Shown here piece by piece: positions 2-11,302 of a stretch of 64,000 bases of DNA (the first letter of the stretch is position 1; the number at the start of each line of letters is the position of its first letter). The position numbers were made by a program, and so were the translations under genes. Source of the stretch: a phage; the NCBI GenBank assembly GCA_025829515.1, contig GCA_025829515.1_4865.1. One strand, given 5' to 3'. The notes beneath the pieces were generated by a model, which worked only from the letters and a program-made list of their open reading frames with translations, searched no databases and was not told the DNA's origin.

Positions 2-2203
2 GTAAACGCCAAAGTTTACAACTCCATGGTGGAGCAATTAACCGGAATCACCAAAGAAATCAAAGAGTTAATTAATGGTGAGACCTTATTAACTGACGCC
101 ACTACCGAAGTTCGTCGTAAATGGTTTACGTTAATGTCAGAATCTGATCTGACGTACGTTGTTGGTTGCTATCGACGTTTGCGTAAACTCGCTTCCAGTT
201 TAAGTGGGGCCATTGAGCACACCGGCCGTAAAATCGGTGAGGCAAAAATGCGCGTGGTGGACGATGAAGAAGATCGTGCACGTTTGGAAGTTCGTTTGAA
301 AGAACTCGATGCTGAGCTTCAGGAATTAAACCGCACAATTGAAGCGAGACCCGGTTTAGATAATGCCGTTTCGGTTGATAGTATCCGGAAACGCATTGCT
401 TCGTTGCAACCGGCTGTAAAACTCATTATGGAACGTTATGGCGTTCTGCCTTCTGACGAACTGATTAACGAGTTTCAAAGTCGTGTGGTTGCCTGGCGTG
501 AGCAAGCTGCCTCTGCTGAAACTGAATGCAACATGTACAATAAAGAGTTGTCACAGCTACTGGATGAGGAGTCGCGTCAAGCGTATCTGATGCGCAACCA
601 TACCGGTCTAAAACAAACAATCGACAGCTTAAAACAGGAACTGGCAACGTTCCAACAGAACTGGATGTTCCCGGCTCTGTTTGAAGGTACCCGCATTGAT
701 GTGGATAGCATTCAGAACGCGTTAAACGATGCCTGTAACTGGAATTTACCGTTGTCCATGCATCTGGACCAGTTAAAGACAACAGATCGCCTGGGAGCGT
801 TAGAGAAGCGTTTACAGGGTATGGATTTAACCTCTGCGGGTCTATCTGAAAAGCTGCAACGTTGTGAGAATGTGCTACACGGTTTATACCACGACCGTCA
901 ACACTTCTTAGAAACTGCAGAAGTTGATTGTCCACAGTGTAACCACCGTTTCCGTCCTGGGATTCGTAAGTCGTTACCTGAAATTGAAAAGGCCATCAAC
1001 GATAATGAAGGTTGGAAGAAGCAGCTGAAAGACGAAATGGATAGTCTTTTGCGTGACCGCAAAGAGATTGAAGAGGACGTCCGTAGCTTACGTACGATTC
1101 GCGAAATCGTCATGTCGTATTCCAACCATCCTGTTGTCGGTTTGTTTTTCCGTAAACTGCAGGAGCTGGATATCTTCACCACGGCGCGGGATCGTTATGG
1201 TGCCATTGCACGTGCCTTTACCGAAGAGTTAGATTCGGCCATGATGTATCTGCGTCAATCAGCGAAGCTTGCAACAGCGGAACGGGAATGGCAAGAGGCT
1301 GTTGCCGCAGTAGGTAATGTTGATGGTGCGCTGAGCCAGAAAATTGAACATATCCGTTCACAACTGGACGGGGCTAACCGTCGACTGATAGAATACCGCA
1401 GACAAGCCAATGAGCTGGAACGCGAAACCACCCAACTGCAACAAACCAAAGAAGCAATCGAACGTTTCCAAAAAGGCTACGAACATCTGGTATCGGAAAT
1501 GAACATCTCCGTTAACAACGTCGTGGTTCGCGAGTTGTTAAACCGACGCGAAGCGAAGCTCGATGCGTACACTTCCGCTCGTGAACGGTTTCGTCAAATG
1601 GAAGGGGCTATTGCACGTTTAGCGGAATTGGAAAAAGAGCAAGCTGAGTTGCTCAAAGAACACCATCATGCCAGATTGATTATCAATGCCGTCTCACCCG
1701 AAAAAGGATTATTGCGTCGTTACTTTTATGCTGCGATTACCCGCATCATGGATTTAATGAATCGGTATATCGAAATGGTGTGGGCATATCCGATGCAGGT
1801 TATTCCATGCGATCTAACCGACGGGGATTTGGATTATACTTTCCCGGTGCGATTAAAAGACCATGAAGAACTGGTGCCGGATGTGAAGAAAGGTTCAAAA
1901 GCACAGCGTATCATTTTCAACATGATGTTTCGTTTAACGGCGTATAAAGCACTTGGTTTACAAAATTATCCTTTGTTATTGGATGAACCATCTGAAGGCA
2001 TGGATGAAGAACACAAAAACCGATTAGTTAACTTCATTAAATCGTTGGCGTTGTCGGGAGAGTTTTCTCAATTGCTGGTCGTTTCGCATGAAGCGGAAGT
2101 TCATTCTAAACTTAACGAAGCCACCTACTGTGTCGTAGAACCAGAAGGTGTAACGCTTCCACCGGTGTATAACGAAGGGGTAATAATCAAATATGCATCA
2201 TAA
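2..2203 (+). CDS. Rad50/SbcC-like coiled-coil ATPase, C-terminal portion (5' end lies outside the window)
   Basis: Frame is open to the window edge; long coiled-coil-like region; CPQC zinc-hook motif at 928-939; Walker B LLLDEP near 1969-1989 and H-loop VVSHE near the C-terminus. Confidence 0.7.
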   Translation, partial: VNAKVYNSMVEQLTGITKEIKELINGETLLTDATTEVRRKWFTLMSESDLTYVVGCYRRLRKLASSLSGAIEHTGRKIGEAKMRVVDDEEDRARLEVRLKELDAELQELNRTIEARPGLDNAVSVDSIRKRIASLQPAVKLIMERYGVLPSDELINEFQSRVVAWREQAASAETECNMYNKELSQLLDEESRQAYLMRNHTGLKQTIDSLKQELATFQQNWMFPALFEGTRIDVDSIQNALNDACNWNLPLSMHLDQLKTTDRLGALEKRLQGMDLTSAGLSEKLQRCENVLHGLYHDRQHFLETAEVDCPQCNHRFRPGIRKSLPEIEKAINDNEGWKKQLKDEMDSLLRDRKEIEEDVRSLRTIREIVMSYSNHPVVGLFFRKLQELDIFTTARDRYGAIARAFTEELDSAMMYLRQSAKLATAEREWQEAVAAVGNVDGALSQKIEHIRSQLDGANRRLIEYRRQANELERETTQLQQTKEAIERFQKGYEHLVSEMNISVNNVVVRELLNRREAKLDAYTSARERFRQMEGAIARLAELEKEQAELLKEHHHARLIINAVSPEKGLLRRYFYAAITRIMDLMNRYIEMVWAYPMQVIPCDLTDGDLDYTFPVRLKDHEELVPDVKKGSKAQRIIFNMMFRLTAYKALGLQNYPLLLDEPSEGMDEEHKNRLVNFIKSLALSGEFSQLLVVSHEAEVHSKLNEATYCVVEPEGVTLPPVYNEGVIIKYAS

Positions 2204-2384
2204 AGGTTGGCGCTTATGGGCTTGGTGGGGTTTTCAGTTCCTTCAGTTTGTTGTGATGGTACTGTACCTCTCCTTTTGTGCAACCGTAGTGGTTATCGCT
2301 GCGGTCGTTTATTTAGCTGCTGCTCTTAAAGAACGTCTGTTCGACACGCGTTGTGAGTGGCGAGATATAGGGGAACGGACATGA
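2193..2384 (+). CDS. small hydrophobic membrane protein (63 aa)
   Basis: ORF with a long hydrophobic stretch (FVVMVLYLSFCATVVVIAAVVYLAAAL); first of a coupled small-ORF cassette. Confidence 0.4.
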   Translation: MHHKGWRLWAWWGFQFLQFVVMVLYLSFCATVVVIAAVVYLAAALKERLFDTRCEWRDIGERT

Positions 2385-2485
2385 TTGAAGGTATCGTATT
2401 AACCGGTATTGCACTGTGGTTGATTCGTGGTGCCTGGGGTTGGATTATCCGCACGAAAGGATGGGCGTTCCATGGCAACACGTAA
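2381..2485 (+). CDS. small transmembrane peptide (34 aa)
   Basis: ATGA overlap with upstream ORF; AGGGGA ribosome-binding site 7 nt upstream; single hydrophobic helix; below the ORF-track size cutoff. Confidence 0.35.
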   Translation: MIEGIVLTGIALWLIRGAWGWIIRTKGWAFHGNT

Positions 2486-2675
2486 ACCACGTCGCTTAAA
2501 ATCTTGGGCGGTTGTGATAATGCACACTGTAGTGTTGCTGGGTATTTTCTTGTCTCGTGCCACGCCTGCCTTTTGGGGCTTAGTTGTTTTGGTGTTCTTA
2601 GAAGGGGTTTACTTCGGTAATCTGTGGAGCAAGCCCCCGCGTTTAAGGGACCCGGCTTATGACAGTCGTGAATAG
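2472..2675 (+). CDS. small membrane protein (about 67 aa, two hydrophobic segments)
   Basis: Internal ATG at 2472 preferred over the track start 2427; basic N-terminus followed by hydrophobic segments. Confidence 0.4.
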   Translation: MATRKPRRLKSWAVVIMHTVVLLGIFLSRATPAFWGLVVLVFLEGVYFGNLWSKPPRLRDPAYDSRE

Positions 2676-2790
2676 TGTCAACGCGGCGATGATTGCAACG
2701 GGTGCGTATGACGGTGCCACATGGACAGATGTTGGTATCACGCTTATCATTTGCGCAATCGGAGCGTTTGTAGCAACATGGTTATTTTAG
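2659..2790 (+). CDS. small transmembrane peptide (43 aa)
   Basis: AAGGGA ribosome-binding site 8 nt upstream of ATG 2659; hydrophobic C-terminal half; overlaps neighbours. Confidence 0.35.
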   Translation: MTVVNSVNAAMIATGAYDGATWTDVGITLIICAIGAFVATWLF

Positions 2791-2885
2791 TGAAATGGGT
2801 TGGGTGTATCGTCTGTAGCCTGATACTAGGAGCGGGCGCATACGCCCTAGGCGCAATCCTTGCATTGACGCAAGGTTGGTTTTAA
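2790..2885 (+). CDS. small hydrophobic peptide (31 aa, GTG start)
   Basis: GTG overlapping the upstream TAG stop (translational coupling); almost entirely hydrophobic; no independent ribosome-binding site. Confidence 0.25.
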   Translation: MKWVGCIVCSLILGAGAYALGAILALTQGWF

Positions 2886-3817: not shown

Positions 3818-3887
3818 TCCTGTTTTAGCACTCCTTACGATTATGCCTCACTATGAGTGGGGTATTTTTACGCGAGGAGTGCTATTT

Positions 3888-4106
3888 ATGTTTCACCGTC
3901 CTGGGTTTTCAGCTTTAAACACCGATGTCTGTTGGGCTGAGTACGAGCGGGTGAAGGAGTTCTTACCCGTAAATCCTAAACACATCAACGTGGGTACTAT
4001 CGGGCGTGTTGCGTTCGATGATACTCCGCTGAGTACGTGTATTAAAGCAGCGCTTGGTACGCTGCCTGAGCCTCACCACCACGACTGGGAGGCAACTTTA
4101 CCCTAA
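3888..4106 (+). CDS. hypothetical protein
   Basis: GAGGAG ribosome-binding site 8 nt upstream of ATG 3888 (track start 3843 is in frame upstream). Confidence 0.4.
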   Translation: MFHRPGFSALNTDVCWAEYERVKEFLPVNPKHINVGTIGRVAFDDTPLSTCIKAALGTLPEPHHHDWEATLP

Positions 4107-4117
4107 GGAGCATTAAA

Positions 4118-4540
4118 ATGGTTACCGCTATTCGCGAAACAAAATCACTATACGATCATTTATCAGAAGAAGAAACAGCCTTATTCTACGACCTGTTACC
4201 TGAAACCAAAGCAAACGTTCAGTGGTGGTTACGTTTAGCGCTACGTGATAAAGTTGGGGAAACGCCGGTTAGTATTCTCGCGCACACGTTGGACATGACG
4301 CCCATGATTGAAATCGCGATTACCCGCCCTAAATTCTGGCGGCCTGGTATGGTGCGTGAGGCGTATCTACTCCAACGCTTAGGTGTTGACCCGGAGAAGT
4401 GTTGGCGTAAGATGGACGACCATCGCTACCGTGAAGAAATTACGAATAGCCTCAACACTATGTTGGCAATGAAACGGCTCGGTATCGAACACGAAGGTTT
4501 CGAGTCAGCGGTAAAAGCCTGGGTGAAAAGGAATAGCTAA
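4118..4540 (+). CDS. hypothetical protein
   Basis: TAAGGAG ribosome-binding site upstream of ATG. Confidence 0.6.
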   Translation: MVTAIRETKSLYDHLSEEETALFYDLLPETKANVQWWLRLALRDKVGETPVSILAHTLDMTPMIEIAITRPKFWRPGMVREAYLLQRLGVDPEKCWRKMDDHRYREEITNSLNTMLAMKRLGIEHEGFESAVKAWVKRNS

Positions 4541-4789
4541 ATGCAAAAAACAATCATCGGAATAACGGTTGGTTCTTTCTGTGGCTTCCCTACCCCACAA
4601 ACAGAACCCCAATATTTGGGCGCAGGCAAACCTGACCCGGAAGTCCGTAAGTTGCGCGAAGAAGCAAAAGCCAGAGTTCTTACTGAGCTGGAATCGTTGC
4701 TTCAGTCTCCGGTTATTTCACAATGGGGTATGGCAATAGATGTCACTCGAACTGATCGACGAGGCCGTTATCTCCCACGACTTGTTTAA
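4541..4789 (+). CDS. hypothetical protein
   Basis: ORF immediately following the previous stop; overlaps next ORF by 50 nt. Confidence 0.4.
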   Translation: MQKTIIGITVGSFCGFPTPQTEPQYLGAGKPDPEVRKLREEAKARVLTELESLLQSPVISQWGMAIDVTRTDRRGRYLPRLV

Positions 4790-5240
4790 CGCGCCTGAGC
4801 GCTTCAAGGTCGTTACAGTTAACTGCGTTGGTGCAATGGGAAGGGGCATTGCCTTGGCGTGCCGAGAACGCTTCCCATCGCTTTATAATGACTATCGCCA
4901 GAAATGCCGTAAAGAGCAAATCGTTATCGGTGAGGTCTATTGTTATCCTGAGGAAGGGGTAATACTCCTTCCTACTAAAACCCATTTTCGCTATAAATCG
5001 CAGATTTACTATGTCACGTCCGGCATTGATGCGCTGGCGCGACTAGGGGAAGACTTAGAAGGAGGGATTGCGATACCACCCCTAGGGATGGCTAACGGTT
5101 GGTTACGTTACCATGAGCGATTGGAAATCTTTATACACTTACAGAAACGACTACAGCACACGGAGCAGACTTATCGATTCTATTTACCGGACACCTTGCT
5201 GAGGGAAGCAGAGAAAATCATCCCAAATAGTTTCAAATAG
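4740..5240 (+). CDS. macro-domain-like protein (putative ADP-ribose binding or processing)
   Basis: N-terminal VVTVNCVGAMGRGIALA and later IAIPPLGMANG motifs resemble the two macro-domain signature regions, with about 86 aa spacing. Confidence 0.45.
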   Translation: MSLELIDEAVISHDLFNAPERFKVVTVNCVGAMGRGIALACRERFPSLYNDYRQKCRKEQIVIGEVYCYPEEGVILLPTKTHFRYKSQIYYVTSGIDALARLGEDLEGGIAIPPLGMANGWLRYHERLEIFIHLQKRLQHTEQTYRFYLPDTLLREAEKIIPNSFK

Positions 5241-5339: not shown

Positions 5340-6062
5340 ATGTTTCGCACCATTTTATTTCTTCTGGTAGCAATGACTACGTTCAACAGCAACGCTTCTT
5401 ACCAGACCACCAGTAACAAACACCAAAAAGAATTCGTCCTTATCCAGGACCAGTTCAATGAGATTAAACCTCTCATCGTCACCGCATCTCGAAAACAAGG
5501 CGTACATGCCGGGATGCTCGCGACCACCATTTATCGTGAATCCCGTTTTAATAAAAACGTGGGTAAGAATAAATCGAGCAGTGCTAGTAGTGTTGTCCAA
5601 ATGACGACAGGCACTAAACGCTCCATGATACGTCTGTATGGGAAACAACTTAACATCCCAAAGAATGCGGACCTTAATAAACCGAAGTATGCTGTACAGC
5701 TTGCTGCCGTTTACATGAAACACATCGAGGATCATCTGACAAAACAACTCAAACGCAAGCCGAGCACAGCCGAAATCGCTTTAGGCTACCGCTTCGGTGA
5801 GGGTGCTGCTGTTGCGATGATTAAAAAGAAATCACCGGTCGGGAAACGCTGGATGGCCAGCTACCGAAAAGACGCAGCATTCTACGGTGCGAAAATGACA
5901 CCACCGAAAGCTGAAACACGTCAGCTTGCTTTTGCGAAGGAAGACCGCGACCAACGCGTCGCTGAGCTTCAGAAAATCTGGGATACGCTGTACACCAAAA
6001 TATCACCTGCGGCCGGTACATTACTGGCAAATAACACTATCATGAAAGGAGCATTGCTTTGA
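5340..6062 (+). CDS. secreted lytic transglycosylase-like protein (SLT domain with N-terminal signal sequence)
   Basis: Hydrophobic N-terminus MFRTILFLLVAMTTF; catalytic-type motif YRESRFN followed by SSASSVVQMTTGT. Confidence 0.65.
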   Translation: MFRTILFLLVAMTTFNSNASYQTTSNKHQKEFVLIQDQFNEIKPLIVTASRKQGVHAGMLATTIYRESRFNKNVGKNKSSSASSVVQMTTGTKRSMIRLYGKQLNIPKNADLNKPKYAVQLAAVYMKHIEDHLTKQLKRKPSTAEIALGYRFGEGAAVAMIKKKSPVGKRWMASYRKDAAFYGAKMTPPKAETRQLAFAKEDRDQRVAELQKIWDTLYTKISPAAGTLLANNTIMKGALL

Positions 6063-6652
6063 CACTCGTAACACGCCCCTGGTATCCAGGTCTTAAAACA
6101 GCCGCACAAATCACCGCCAAAGACGTTTACGAACTGATTCGCGCGGGTGCGGAACACGTTCAAACCAATCCGAACTACGTTGAGCGTCCTATCGGTGAAG
6201 TCGATGGGGAAGCTGTCGAAGCACCTGTCTACGTTGAGTACGGCGAATGGTTCGCAGAGAACCACGGTTTCTACGACGCGTTAAACGCGGCGTTTGGTGA
6301 TGACGAAGACGAAGGTATCGAATTCGACTGGAACGTTAATCTGGCGCTGATGTGGATTTGTGGTTTACGTCCAGCAATTAACGAAACCGAAGCAGGCTTC
6401 GTGCTGACGTGGCGACAGTCGGCGGGTTACGATAAAGAACTCGACTTCAAACAGGCGTATATGGATGTGTCGATTGCACTGCAGAAACTGTTCTTCGGCG
6501 ATCGTGCTTTCTGCCAGCTCAGCTGGTTGACCATCCTGGAAAAACTGGCAACGTGCCACAAACTGTGGCGAGCAGAAGATGCCCCAGAACATCTTTTCGT
6601 GCTCGAATATGCAGTGGTACCGAACCAGCCGTTCTTTGAGGCCGAAGCGTAA
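6059..6652 (+). CDS. hypothetical acidic protein
   Basis: ORF overlapping upstream stop; followed by hairpin terminator. Confidence 0.55.
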   Translation: MTLVTRPWYPGLKTAAQITAKDVYELIRAGAEHVQTNPNYVERPIGEVDGEAVEAPVYVEYGEWFAENHGFYDALNAAFGDDEDEGIEFDWNVNLALMWICGLRPAINETEAGFVLTWRQSAGYDKELDFKQAYMDVSIALQKLFFGDRAFCQLSWLTILEKLATCHKLWRAEDAPEHLFVLEYAVVPNQPFFEAEA

Positions 6653-6657
6653 TTAAC

Positions 6658-6690
6658 GGTCAGACCTTCGGGTCTGACCACCTTTTATTT
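6658..6690 (+). terminator. intrinsic terminator hairpin
   Basis: GGTCAGACC-TTCG-GGTCTGACC stem-loop followed by a T-rich tract. Confidence 0.6.
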
Positions 6691-6703: not shown

Positions 6704-6970
6704 GTGTTCGTGAAACGTTTAATAAATTTTCTCTACTGGATGGAGAAACGCTATAGCCACAACATTCCGATGATGTATAGTTTGTTATTCTCCACGGTAA
6801 TGTTGGTAATCGGTGCGATCGTCGCACATCTGATGGAACTCACGTCCCCATGGGCGCAACTCTTTCTTACCATCTGGATGTTGTTCTCAGGCTACCACAT
6901 ACGTGGTTTCATAACCCGATTCTTTCGCTGGCGGAGTACCTGGCACGTCTTTAATTCCGACCGTAACTAG
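6704..6970 (+). CDS. small membrane protein
   Basis: Two hydrophobic segments; start codon uncertain (GTG 6704 or downstream ATG). Confidence 0.4.
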   Translation: MFVKRLINFLYWMEKRYSHNIPMMYSLLFSTVMLVIGAIVAHLMELTSPWAQLFLTIWMLFSGYHIRGFITRFFRWRSTWHVFNSDRN

Positions 6971-8170: not shown

Positions 8171-8219
8171 AAAAAATAAAAGCCTACCTACTCCCTTGGG
8201 AGTAGGTAGTTCTTTTTTT
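8171..8219. terminator. bidirectional intrinsic terminator
   Basis: A-tract, 11-12 bp stem CTACCTACTCCC/GGGAGTAGGTAG, then T-tract; lies between convergent genes. Confidence 0.7.
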
Positions 8220-8221
8220 CT

Positions 8222-8845
8222 TTAATTTGTTAACCCGTTATCTTTCAGGATTTTCAACATCGCATCATTCAACGCCTGCAGTTCTTGATTCTGCTTAGTG
8301 AGTGTTGCAACTTGTTCTGTCAGAGGAACCTGCTCACGGATTTTGGCTTTACGCACCGCTTCCATTTGCAAGTGTTCTTCTTCCGTCACCGTCCCTTCGT
8401 AATCCATCGATGTGATGTCCACACGTGCATCGATTCCTAAACCGCGTTCTAAGATGCTTTTCAGGTCGTTCGTTAGCAGTGTGACATCGACGTATTCGGG
8501 TATTAATGCCAGGTCAATAACCACCACATTGCGTCTATAATTTAACCCATTCAGTCCAGGATACGTCTCAATGTACGTATCAGGCAACTCGTAGACTTGA
8601 CCGTCCCTCGACTTTAATGTTACAATCGAGGCTTCGACATTAGCGTCGCTGATATAGTCGTCACGAGTTAGGCCGACAGGTTTATAATACTTGTTATAAA
8701 CGTCAATATTATTACGTTGGAGTTTCGGAAAGTTCTGTACCGCGTCAACACGGTAAATCACTTTATCTGGCAACGTATAAGGTGCCTTAACCTTGAACAA
8801 CCCCTCAAGGTTAACCTGAGGCGTGTTAGGCAACAGTTGTGCCAT
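8222..8845 (-). CDS. hypothetical protein (C-terminal coiled coil)
   Basis: Minus-strand ORF ending at the bidirectional terminator. Confidence 0.55.
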   Translation of the reverse strand: MAQLLPNTPQVNLEGLFKVKAPYTLPDKVIYRVDAVQNFPKLQRNNIDVYNKYYKPVGLTRDDYISDANVEASIVTLKSRDGQVYELPDTYIETYPGLNGLNYRRNVVVIDLALIPEYVDVTLLTNDLKSILERGLGIDARVDITSMDYEGTVTEEEHLQMEAVRKAKIREQVPLTEQVATLTKQNQELQALNDAMLKILKDNGLTN

Positions 8846-8855
8846 TTAACCCTCC

Positions 8856-10235
8856 TTAGGCTTCTGGCTCTGCCGCAGGGACATCCCAAACAGCTTTGCG
8901 GGCCAAGACACGATACTCCACGTTATCGAATTCGAAGACGTAGAAGTAAACGTTAGGATCGACGTCGTCTACGAGCTTCACGATATCCAGCGGGGTGGAA
9001 TGTGGGTGATACTCTTCCGCTGCGATTAACGCCTGGAAGAACAAGTCCAGCCACTCGGTGGTTTTCTTCGACATTCTCGCAATATCTGCATTGTTAGTGC
9101 CGATTAATGCGTAGTCGGGAATCGTATCGTGCAGGGTCGTTTTGCGTGAATCGTTTTCAGGGCCTGCGATAACTACAGCGTTTAGTGATTTATAGATGGA
9201 CGGTAAATCCGTTACATCGGTAGTTGGAGTTGAGATTGCTCCACTATTTTTTTCCGTAATGGTTTGAACAGTCCACTCCCCAAATCGGGAGATTGCTTTG
9301 ACCCAGAAATCATATGGGAGAATCGGCGAGTATAATGCCGCAACGTCTTCCTCATTTGGAATCCCACGAATTGACCAACCGGGAACAATTGTGAACTTGG
9401 TGGTCGTAAAGATTTCTGGGAACACCTTGACACCCAACGCCACAGTAAAACTGGAGTTTGCCAAAATGTAATCACGCAACGCTTGTTTAATCCTGCTCGG
9501 GTTACGACCCGCGCGTCCGTAGATGATAGCCGACATCGGTATCGGTAAGGTGGAATCAAAGTCTTCCTGGTCGTGCCAAGTATAGATGTTAGTAATCAGG
9601 CTAGTGTACGGATAACCGTCAGCTAATTCGTTAATCTTATTATGGTGATCCGGAAGGTTGAACCCTTCCATTGCCTTTTCGACTACAGATTTCACAGCCA
9701 AGAAAGTATCAACCGGTAATATCGGCATTTGGACTTCAATTTCAAATCCGGTATAGTCCTGATTGAAATCTTCATCAGCAAACCAGAGAATAATCTGGTT
9801 ATTCACATCAGATGGGTCTTCGACTTTATCTGCTGTGGTTTCAAGTTTCCAACTGACCCAACGTGGGAACCAGTTACTGTTAGTCTGAATCATCGCGCCA
9901 GACTGAACACCGCTGATGACACTATTAAATTGCCCCAACAGCAAACGCTGGAATTCAACTTCGTCGTTTCTTAAGTTGCCCAGGATAGACTGTTGGTAGA
10001 TCCATTGGGAAACAGTAAGAACGTGGTCGCTAAAGACGGCCGGGGTCTTAATAGGCAACTCGTCACGTTTAGAAGTAAAAGCAACCAGTTCCACCTGCAG
10101 ATTTTCTTTAGTAAAATACTGCTTGCTTTTAGCGAACGAATATGACAGCTCAGACAACTCACCTACCGGAGCGGTGTTGCCAGGGCCATTATCAATCAGA
10201 GCCGCTATTTGAATAAAGCCTTGTAAATCATACAT
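8856..10235 (-). CDS. hypothetical protein
   Basis: Long minus-strand ORF immediately upstream of 8222-8845. Confidence 0.6.
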   Translation of the reverse strand: MYDLQGFIQIAALIDNGPGNTAPVGELSELSYSFAKSKQYFTKENLQVELVAFTSKRDELPIKTPAVFSDHVLTVSQWIYQQSILGNLRNDEVEFQRLLLGQFNSVISGVQSGAMIQTNSNWFPRWVSWKLETTADKVEDPSDVNNQIILWFADEDFNQDYTGFEIEVQMPILPVDTFLAVKSVVEKAMEGFNLPDHHNKINELADGYPYTSLITNIYTWHDQEDFDSTLPIPMSAIIYGRAGRNPSRIKQALRDYILANSSFTVALGVKVFPEIFTTTKFTIVPGWSIRGIPNEEDVAALYSPILPYDFWVKAISRFGEWTVQTITEKNSGAISTPTTDVTDLPSIYKSLNAVVIAGPENDSRKTTLHDTIPDYALIGTNNADIARMSKKTTEWLDLFFQALIAAEEYHPHSTPLDIVKLVDDVDPNVYFYVFEFDNVEYRVLARKAVWDVPAAEPEA

Positions 10236-10253: not shown

Positions 10254-10769
10254 GTGAGCATGATAGCATCAGTTTTCAAACTGCTTCCATTCTTACAGAT
10301 GCTGTGGGAAGCATTTAAACCGGGCGAGGGGGAGAAAGTAACACGAGCCGGGAAAATAGTGACACTAGTGATAGTGGCACTGATCGCGTTCTCTGCATTT
10401 GTCTCATATGCCTATATTGTTCAATACCACACACTGGTTAGCGTTCAATCGCGTACTCAGTATCTGGAGATATCCTATAAGGAGCTAAAAGAGAAGTCCG
10501 ATCATAGCGAAGTGGAGAACAATAAGTTGTACGATCGTCTCTTCACGTGCCTGGGTTCTCGACCGCCATATGATGGTACCAAATCTCCAACAGGAACAGG
10601 CACTGAGGCCGCGGTTCCGCCTGTAGATCTCAAGCCGGTAACACCGCCGGCACCGTTAAATCCGTCTAGCCCACCTGCCAAGAAATACCAGGCCGCTTCT
10701 CGCCCGGTAGGGTCGCAGGAGGCAAATGATTTCCGACAGGAGATTATCAGTACGCTTAATAATCCATGA
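10254..10769 (+). CDS. membrane protein with transmembrane anchor, coiled-coil segment and Pro-rich tail (i-spanin-like candidate)
   Basis: Hydrophobic helix IVTLVIVALIAFSAFVSYAYIV; heptad-like segment; PVTPPAPLNPSSPP tail. Confidence 0.5.
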   Translation: MSMIASVFKLLPFLQMLWEAFKPGEGEKVTRAGKIVTLVIVALIAFSAFVSYAYIVQYHTLVSVQSRTQYLEISYKELKEKSDHSEVENNKLYDRLFTCLGSRPPYDGTKSPTGTGTEAAVPPVDLKPVTPPAPLNPSSPPAKKYQAASRPVGSQEANDFRQEIISTLNNP

Positions 10770-10778
10770 GGAGTATAC

Positions 10779-11258
10779 ATGAAGTTATTTTTGGTGGCGA
10801 TACTGGTGCTATTGTTGACAGGATGCCCTGGAGCCATCCGTCACGTAGACCCAGATTACTCCTCAACCGGAGATTGGCCTTTTCGTCCTTTAGAACACCC
10901 ACCAGTTTATGCTGGTGGGAACAGTCCTGAGGTGAAAAAGCTGGCAGGGAAAATGTTTGTTGCGGATGTGAACGCTTATGCTTATTACGTTTATCTGTAC
11001 GCTAAGTCGTTGAACAATTACGCAGAAGCTAAGGGGTGGCGCACCCCGATGGCCGCACCGCTTTGTGAAGAGTTTATTCGCCCCACTCTTCATGATATAC
11101 CCTCCGGGATATATCTCGACCCTGGTTCTCGTAGCCCTCAAGACATTAGTCGTGATTTGTCACGACAGATTAAGTCTCTCATTCGCAGCTATCGCGAAGA
11201 CAGAGAGTCTTTTAATCATGCCTACGAACGGCACAAAAGTAGTTGCCTTGTGCAATGA
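10779..11258 (+). CDS. lipoprotein (o-spanin-like candidate)
   Basis: GAGGAG ribosome-binding site; signal peptide ending in lipobox LLTGC. Confidence 0.6.
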   Translation: MKLFLVAILVLLLTGCPGAIRHVDPDYSSTGDWPFRPLEHPPVYAGGNSPEVKKLAGKMFVADVNAYAYYVYLYAKSLNNYAEAKGWRTPMAAPLCEEFIRPTLHDIPSGIYLDPGSRSPQDISRDLSRQIKSLIRSYREDRESFNHAYERHKSSCLVQ

Positions 11259-11263
11259 AAACT

Positions 11264-11302
11264 CCCTCTTACCTTCGGGTAAGAGGGGATTTCCTTTTTT
11301 TA
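11264..11302 (+). terminator. intrinsic terminator
   Basis: CCCTCTTACC-TTCG-GGTAAGAGGG stem-loop followed by TTTCCTTTTTTT. Confidence 0.65.

Follow-up and report, generated by a model that had tools for sequence, protein, structure and literature searches.

The 64,000-nucleotide stretch of phage DNA analysed here (GCA_025829515.1_4865.1, hereafter the window) probably holds two modules of the lysis system of an SPN3US-type jumbo phage, a system of several genes scattered over the genome. The first is the gene at 5340..6062 on the plus strand, whose product, the homologue of SPN3US gp198, is predicted to be an exported lytic transglycosylase and is a candidate endolysin. The second is a pair of genes on the same strand, at 10260..10769 and 10779..11258, which encode homologues of gp204 and gp205, candidates for the inner-membrane (i-spanin) and outer-membrane (o-spanin) subunits of a two-component spanin. 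Judged from its matches, the window is from a Salmonella jumbo phage of the SPN3US type (Seoulvirus). Its segment 4500-12000 gives full-length megablast matches, at 97-99.4% identity, to the Seoulvirus Salmonella jumbo phages MET_P1_082_240, SPLA1a, the SPFM phages and SPN3US, and its ends correspond to SPN3US 169,208-233,373. Gene names were transferred by mapping the open reading frames (ORFs) of the window onto SPN3US records.

A predicted lytic transglycosylase with an export signal

By homology, the 240-residue gp198 is a family-1 lytic transglycosylase, corresponding to the catalytic domain of phiKZ gp144 with a signal peptide replacing the peptidoglycan-binding domain. It scores 27.7 bits against the SLT domain PF01464 (gathering cut-off 21.3) and matches phrog_4067, "transglycosylase," with an E-value of 6e-58. 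A hidden Markov model (HMM) of the family, built from nine homologues belonging to several genera, matches the catalytic domain of phiKZ gp144 with an E-value of 7.6e-23, and the gp144 structures 3BKH and 9XPS are the sole relatives of gp198 in the PDB. The predicted catalytic Glu67 (codon at 5538..5540, plus strand), which lies in a YRES motif, is invariant in the nine homologues and aligns with the IES motif of phiKZ gp144; the E67-S68 dipeptide is kept in eight of them, the Machina protein having Glu-Thr. No PG_binding domain was found in gp198, either with Pfam or by alignment, its N-terminus being a signal peptide instead. The mature protein would have ~221 residues, an isoelectric point (pI) of 10.2 and no Cys. 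With the SLT domain above its cut-off, the catalytic Glu67 and the signal all present, the description of this gene in an earlier note on the same DNA, as an SLT-type enzyme with an N-terminal hydrophobic signal, is borne out. The SPN3US record of gp198 is already annotated as "putative endolysin" or "transglycosylase," while the literature searched makes no mention of SPN3US gp198, gp204 or gp205, or of phiKZ gp156.

The signal of gp198 looks like a cleavable Sec signal peptide. It occupies residues 1-19 (5340..5396, plus strand), with MFR as the n-region, TILFLLVAMTTF as the h-region and NSNA, followed by SY, as the c-region, and cleavage is predicted between Ala19 and Ser20. Eight of the nine aligned phage homologues have Ala19 at -1, with -3 taken by a small or neutral residue; the exception is the CR5 homologue, with the site LHA/AMS at 17-19. 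All nine have a basic n-region followed by a core of 10-12 residues rich in Leu, Ile and Phe, in which the residues themselves are divergent. Three metagenomic relatives also bear signals with these features. It is the combination of a short Leu/Ile/Phe-rich core with a conserved -3/-1 site that leads us to read the signal as cleavable.

The earlier note had instead suggested a signal-anchor-release (SAR) endolysin, i.e., an enzyme that would stay inactive at the inner membrane until a pinholin collapses the membrane potential. SAR domains are uncleaved transmembrane domains (TMDs) of ~20 residues that are rich in Gly, Ala, Ser and Thr, and those of P1 Lyz and phage 21 R have ~20 or more residues, are Gly/Ala-rich and have no cleavage site. 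A hydrophobic N-terminal segment does precede the muralytic domain of gp198, an uncharged stretch of 23 residues follows its Arg3, and a pinholin-like ORF with two TMDs (gp200) is close by. However, the core of gp198 is short and is followed by the conserved Ala19 site, the fraction of Gly, Ala, Ser and Thr in the hydrophobic core across the family is 0.17-0.33, and the protein has no Cys for disulfide caging. We therefore regard a SAR endolysin as very improbable and a cleavable Sec signal as the likelier explanation.

Among the proteins considered, gp198 is the best endolysin candidate because the SLT gene is found in every clade member examined, signal included, whereas the other contender, SPN3US gp158, which lies outside the window, is restricted to members of Seoulvirus and Derbicusvirus and absent from most of the clade, including the phiEaH2, Machina and Wellington types. 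That Seoulviruses also encode gp158 nevertheless weighs against our reading. This M15-like protein has no signal peptide and matches phrog_894, "endolysin," at 2.7e-26, and its homologues in small Vibrio phages are annotated as their endolysins. It could be the cytoplasmic endolysin of Seoulvirus, released by a canonical holin, with gp198 left as an accessory periplasmic enzyme of murein remodelling. Timed lysis is moreover hard to square with a freely secreted, active transglycosylase, and a soluble, signal-cleaved gp198 would need some restraint against premature lysis. Against this stand the patchy distribution of gp158, the universality of gp198 and its orthology to the catalytic domain of gp144, the essential endolysin of phiKZ. 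Furthermore, there are established precedents for secreted and SAR endolysins that are held in check until the membrane is depolarised (Lys44 of fOg44, Lyz of P1, R of phage 21). We thus consider it improbable that gp158 takes the place of gp198 as the endolysin. In SPN3US (136982-138114), gp158 lies beside a lone lipoprotein gene, gp159 (lipobox LAGC), on the opposite strand.

A further possibility, which the earlier note had named as fatal to its proposal, is that the SLT protein is a virion component. gp198 is not among the 83 proteins of the SPN3US virion mass spectrometry table (Thomas et al. 2016, Table S4), which includes gp193, gp202 and gp203 and likewise lacks gp204 and gp205. Given this absence and the export signal, and because the role of tail lysin falls to gp239, we have rejected the idea that gp198 is a virion lysin.

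The gp204-gp205 pair

The upstream gene of the pair, first listed as 10254-10769, almost certainly starts at ATG 10260 because the GTG at 10254 is inside the Shine-Dalgarno (SD) sequence, GAGGTGA, found just upstream of that ATG, and because all homologues begin with MIA or MVA. The boundaries originally given for the other two genes, 5340-6062 and 10779-11258, are retained. The product, gp204, which matches phrog_8719 (function not assigned), is composed of a conserved cytoplasmic motif of 31 residues, a TMD (residues 32-54), a helix (residues 55-100), a Pro-rich segment (residues 101-150, with 13 Pro in 50 residues) and a conserved C-terminal tail. Its single TMD is preceded by the charged EGEKVTRAGK, and the N-in topology is read from hydropathy and charge only. 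An a/d heptad pattern is continuous over residues 52-97, with hydrophobic residues at 9 of the 14 core positions, but only ~45 of the 115 periplasmic residues are helical, the remainder being Pro-rich. Cys97 is invariant in eight aligned phage homologues.

The downstream product, gp205, is a predicted outer-membrane lipoprotein. It begins MKLFLVAILVLLLTGC, a consensus lipobox (L13-T14-G15-C16 with Pro at +2; 10815..10826, plus strand), and would have 144 residues when mature; Cys96 and Cys156 are invariant in an alignment of 11 sequences. The lipobox is kept in all eight phage homologues, and Asp is never found at +2 in these. A full-library search with a gp205 HMM matched just 39 clusters among 1.84 billion representatives. 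When the 36 metagenomic sequences of the family that were retrieved were read by eye, 33 had a lipobox, the exceptions being two ordinary signal peptides and one low-complexity match. An AlphaFold2 (AF2) model, whose low confidence (predicted local distance difference test, pLDDT, of 57) makes it too weak for a fold search, shows two long helices preceded by a disordered tether.

The two genes form a closed two-gene unit since gp205 starts 9 nt past the stop of gp204, each has its own SD (GAGGAG for gp205), and a bidirectional hairpin terminator with an 11-bp stem (11263..11288) directly follows gp205. Both are labelled "hypothetical protein" in all public records of the family; each occurs in 73 phage records, whose breakdown by organism is the same for both, and the two are adjacent at every locus examined. 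A six-frame lipobox scan of the window using all start codons revealed no credible lipoprotein other than gp205. Across the whole 240-kb genome of SPN3US, a lipobox-like N-terminus is seen in just three annotated genes, gp205, gp159 and gp180. All three lack a C-terminal TMD, and gp205 alone has an N-in membrane protein encoded next to it on the upstream side. Since gp204 and gp205 are the only such pair in the genome, their pairing is no chance arrangement. With neither a TMD partner nor a C-terminal TMD, gp159 and gp180 were rejected both as two-component and as unimolecular spanins. Just upstream of the window, gp180-gp182 (SPN3US 165783-167095) form a cluster of genes for three small proteins, whose N-termini resemble signal peptides or lipoboxes.

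We then compared the pair with the published description of separated two-component spanins (Summer 2007; Kongari 2018), using the lipobox pattern [LVI][ASTVI][GAS]C with no Asp at +2. As expected of an o-subunit, gp205 has LTGC followed by Pro. As expected of an i-subunit, gp204 is a single-TMD, predicted N-in protein whose gene directly precedes that of gp205 on the same strand. The description also has the periplasmic part of the i-subunit dominated by alpha-helix or coiled coil, and here gp204 gives a mixed picture, its heptad helix covering less than half of that part. Conserved periplasmic Cys residues are present in both (Cys97 in gp204, Cys96 and Cys156 in gp205). By their TMD/lipoprotein architecture, their organisation as a closed unit and their conservation, gp204 and gp205 thus largely fit the operational definition of a separated two-component spanin, a function that we consider likely but unproven. 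The supplementary tables of Kongari et al. 2018 (PMC6139136) list the homologues in Cronobacter phage CR5 as a separated i-/o-spanin, consisting of CR5_183 (168815-169330, with a coiled coil at residues 66-99) and a lipoprotein (169340-169786). CR5_183 and CR5_184, whose assignment as spanins is bioinformatic only (PMC6139136), share ~39% and ~30% identity with gp204 and gp205, respectively, as well as the gene order, the 9-10 nt spacing, the lipobox, the TMD, the predicted coiled coil and the synteny.

The comparison with phiKZ complicates this assignment. The phiKZ lysis cassette consists of gp141 (i-spanin), gp141.1 (o-spanin), gp142 (holin), gp143 (regulator) and gp144 (endolysin) (Manohar et al. 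2026, PMC12894885), and its spanin has been verified experimentally, including in an assay of outer-membrane disruption of the kind exemplified by complementation of lambda Rz-am Rz1-am (PMC12894885). SPN3US gp84 and gp85 are the homologues of phiKZ gp139 and gp140, and in SPN3US, phiEaH2, Machina and CR5, gp85 is directly followed by gp86, gp87 and an acetyltransferase gene; in these four phages, neither a spanin pair nor an endolysin was found at the position of the phiKZ cassette. Instead, gp204 and gp205 sit in the slot of phiKZ gp156.1 and gp156, between a divergent tail gene (gp157 in phiKZ, gp203 in SPN3US) and RNase H (gp155 and gp207, respectively). phiKZ gp156 is a lipoprotein with the lipobox LISGC, and its C-terminal two-Cys domain is homologous to that of gp205 (HMM E-value of 1.7e-7; hhalign probability of 95%, E-value of 2.7e-8; reciprocal PHROG matches). 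phiKZ gp156.1 is an N-in membrane protein of 96 residues, with an N-terminal motif similar to that of gp204 and no Pro-rich arm, although the similarity between gp204 and gp156.1 is not statistically significant. On synteny and profile evidence, the gp204-gp205 pair is orthologous to phiKZ gp156.1/gp156. Since the latter exists beside the verified gp141/gp141.1, phiKZ-like phages carry two TMD/lipoprotein pairs. The gp156.1/gp156 pair of phiKZ-like phages is hypothetical in every annotation, and we found no paper mentioning it, nor any discussion in the papers searched of the caveat that this orthology represents.

Several points consequently weigh against a spanin role. gp204 and gp205 match no spanin family of PHROG, Pfam or NCBIfam at E ≤ 1, whereas phiKZ gp141 and gp141.1 do match generic Rz-like spanin PHROGs; a comparison of gp204 with the gp141 family by hhalign gave an E-value of 0.16. 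Whereas Rz1 is short and Pro-rich, mature gp205 is large and predicted to be helical. In gp204, conservation is highest in the cytoplasmic N-terminus, for which the spanin model has no need. The family might have another job altogether because phiKZ already has a verified spanin and its transposon insertion sequencing (TnSeq) tables show zero insertions in gp156 and gp156.1, as in gp141/gp141.1.

Such an alternative would make gp204 and gp205 an envelope pair of nucleus-forming jumbo phages, concerned with the organisation of assembly sites, with exclusion or with the regulation of lysis, and SPN3US-type phages would breach the outer membrane some other way. It also draws on the identical synteny between gp157/gp203 and RNase H, on the strong conservation of the cytoplasmic motif and on the zero insertions, from which gp156 and gp156.1 are not obviously redundant. 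However, no terminator was found between phiKZ gp156 and the essential gp155, so the transposon result may be polar, and we have set it aside as proof of essentiality. In addition, gp204 and gp205 are the only TMD and lipoprotein pair in a genome that lacks a phiKZ-type spanin; the architecture, Cys residues and Pro-rich arm fit the spanin description; the CR5 homologues are curated as spanins; and no search pointed to another function. On balance, we consider a function other than that of a lysis spanin rather unlikely.

A related idea is that, in nucleus-forming jumbo phages, the family represents a second conserved periplasm-spanning pair that differs from the classical spanin and has a cytoplasmic control motif. 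If so, phiKZ-like phages would need two systems, while SPN3US-like phages would either use the pair in a dual role or have no canonical spanin. This we regard as doubtful. The reading that we favour, and think reasonably probable, is that the gp141-type spanin was lost from the SPN3US clade, which now depends on the gp156-type pair. We do so because the genome offers no other candidate, and because this pair shows the architectural hallmarks and has kept its linkage to the SLT gene. In two distant metagenomic relatives (L030 and L032), the SLT gene and the pair are ~2 kb apart, separated only by the inverted gp202-gp203 module. The spanin-like pair proposed in the earlier note is thus backed by its architecture, its lipobox, its uniqueness in the genome and its curated CR5 homologues, while the orthology to gp156 keeps its spanin role short of proven.

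Holin candidates and neighbouring genes

No classical holin had been recognised in the earlier note next to either module, but an ORF with two TMDs, gp200 (6704..6970, plus strand), lies 640 bp downstream of the SLT gene, behind a hairpin terminator (6658..6679, plus strand). By hydropathy, its 88-residue product has two TMDs and an Arg-rich C-terminal tail, and it has no family match in profile searches. A homologue is found in SPAsTU, and in Machina, ChrisDB and Wellington the corresponding position holds non-homologous two-TMD proteins; no two-TMD protein was found there in phiEaH2, CR5 or Phobos. Since such a protein is thus missing from some relatives and non-homologous in others, gp200 is at best a lineage-specific holin or pinholin candidate.

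More probably, the holin is gp86, which is encoded outside the window (gp86 and gp87, SPN3US 84978-86286). It has a soluble N-terminal domain of ~100 residues and two hydrophobic segments, whereas gp87 is soluble, and the two genes, which directly follow a RuvC-like gene, are placed where phiKZ has the holin gp142 and the regulator gp143. Because gp86, like gp87, is conserved in 72 phage records, lies at the gp142 position and shows weak profile similarity to the gp142 family (hhalign E-value of 4.6e-4, 33% probability), we consider it the best clade-wide candidate. The weakness of this similarity counts against the assignment, as does the comparison of gp87 with gp143 (hhalign E-value of 0.41), which gave no support for homology.

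A third source of a holin, suggested in the earlier note, was the cassette of small peptides at 2193-2885 (plus strand). The ORFs are real, but nothing ties them to lysis, and the cluster follows SbcC in relatives as well; we have therefore discarded it. It follows the homologue of the SbcC-like gp186 (26-2203, mapped to SPN3US) and consists of four or five overlapping tiny membrane ORFs, the homologues of gp187-gp189 and two ORFs, 2357-2485 and 2721-2885, that are unannotated in SPN3US. Thomas et al. 2016 proposed that gp187 might anchor SbcCD, like T4 gp47.1. The metagenomic relative L032 has membrane ORFs of 59 and 46 residues in the region after its SMC gene.

The conserved partner of gp198 is gp199 (6059..6652, plus strand), an acidic (pI 4.4) cytoplasmic protein whose start overlaps the stop of the SLT gene (TTGA). 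Its AF2 model is confident and has no analogue in PDB or BFVD. Homology to the phiKZ lysis regulator gp143 was rejected (hhalign E-value of 0.69). A linked possibility is that acidic gp199 controls the export or the activity of basic gp198. The SLT-gp199 unit is ended by the terminator at 6658-6679, which has a 9-bp stem, a CTTCGG loop and a T-run. Together with two other strong hairpin terminators that likewise have CTTCGG-type tetraloops, it delimits the SLT-gp199 (6658-6679), gp200-gp201 (8184-8209) and gp204-gp205 (11263-11288) units; two of the three are bidirectional. Terminator-like hairpins number 25, against 10.4 expected from shuffles. A scan for sigma-70 promoters gave no excess over the shuffle expectation, a test that is uninformative where a phage has RNA polymerases of its own.

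Between the two modules, on the minus strand, lie the homologues of gp202-gp203 (8222-10235), which are virion/tail proteins, gp203 being essential. Directly upstream of the SLT gene, a macro-domain protein (ADP-ribose binding or processing) is encoded at 4740-5240. This gene, a homologue of phiKZ ORF104, keeps its position upstream of the SLT gene across the clade. At 3843-4118, the window lacks the gene for SPN3US gp193, a protein of 172 residues detected in SPN3US virions: ~550 bp of SPN3US sequence (~513 bp net) are gone, and the C-terminus of the gp192 homologue differs. SPLA1a has the same arrangement, with no gp193 and an altered gp192 C-terminus.

Lysis model and comparison with known systems

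From these features, we infer the following route. gp198, co-transcribed and translationally coupled with gp199, would be exported by its own Sec signal, which would then be cleaved. Because that signal stands in place of the peptidoglycan-binding domain, the enzyme would reach the periplasm on its own, independently of holin holes, and would cut murein at the end of infection. gp204, with its predicted coiled-coil helix and Pro-rich arm, would most likely form with gp205 a periplasm-spanning complex, which murein degradation would free to disrupt the outer membrane. The timing element, a holin or pinholin, would be encoded elsewhere, possibly by gp200 or, more probably, by gp86 at ~85 kb.

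The earlier note's view that lysis functions are dispersed agrees with this picture, the SLT gene and the pair being ~4 kb apart while the phiKZ cassette is compact. Since functional gene groups are typically split in this phage family (Thomas et al. 2016), such dispersal is expected rather than surprising. Likewise, the lysis toolkit is largely known for close relatives and is to be expected in a well-sequenced phage. What the comparison shows is that the phiKZ cassette has been dismantled in the SPN3US clade: the enzyme of the gp144 type has acquired a secretion signal and moved ~90 kb away, the phiKZ-type spanin is missing, and the one pair that resembles a spanin is orthologous to a second, uncharacterised pair of phiKZ. 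For phiKZ itself, lysis was worked out only in 2026, when it was traced to a compact cassette of five genes. Resolving these roles would improve the annotation of ~70 jumbo phages that are therapeutic candidates and could show whether two envelope-spanning systems are at work in nucleus-forming phages.

The closest known counterpart of gp198 is phiKZ gp144, from the same phage family. Their catalytic domains are homologous over ~160 residues and both have the Glu-Ser motif. However, gp144 has an N-terminal peptidoglycan-binding domain and no signal, depends on a holin and is present in virions, whereas gp198 has a Sec signal and is undetected in virions. Moreover, gp198 is not adjacent to holin or spanin genes, unlike gp144 in the gp141-gp144 cassette. 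With the endolysins Lys44 of fOg44, Lyz of P1 and R of phage 21, gp198 would share the holin-independent, Sec-dependent export of a muralytic enzyme; its signal looks cleavable, like that of Lys44, rather than SAR, and the host here is Gram-negative.

As for gp204 and gp205, they resemble lambda Rz/Rz1 and T4 PseT.3/PseT.2 in combining a type II inner-membrane subunit with an outer-membrane lipoprotein and in having conserved periplasmic Cys residues, and, as in T4, the two genes are separated. They differ from both in having no sequence similarity to them, a Pro-rich region in the inner-membrane subunit, predicted long helices in the lipoprotein and a cytoplasmic N-terminal motif that is long and conserved. 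With phiKZ gp156.1/gp156, by contrast, they share the genomic slot, a lipoprotein with a two-Cys domain and a small upstream N-in membrane protein, while phiKZ, unlike the SPN3US clade, has the verified spanin gp141/gp141.1 besides its gp156-type pair.

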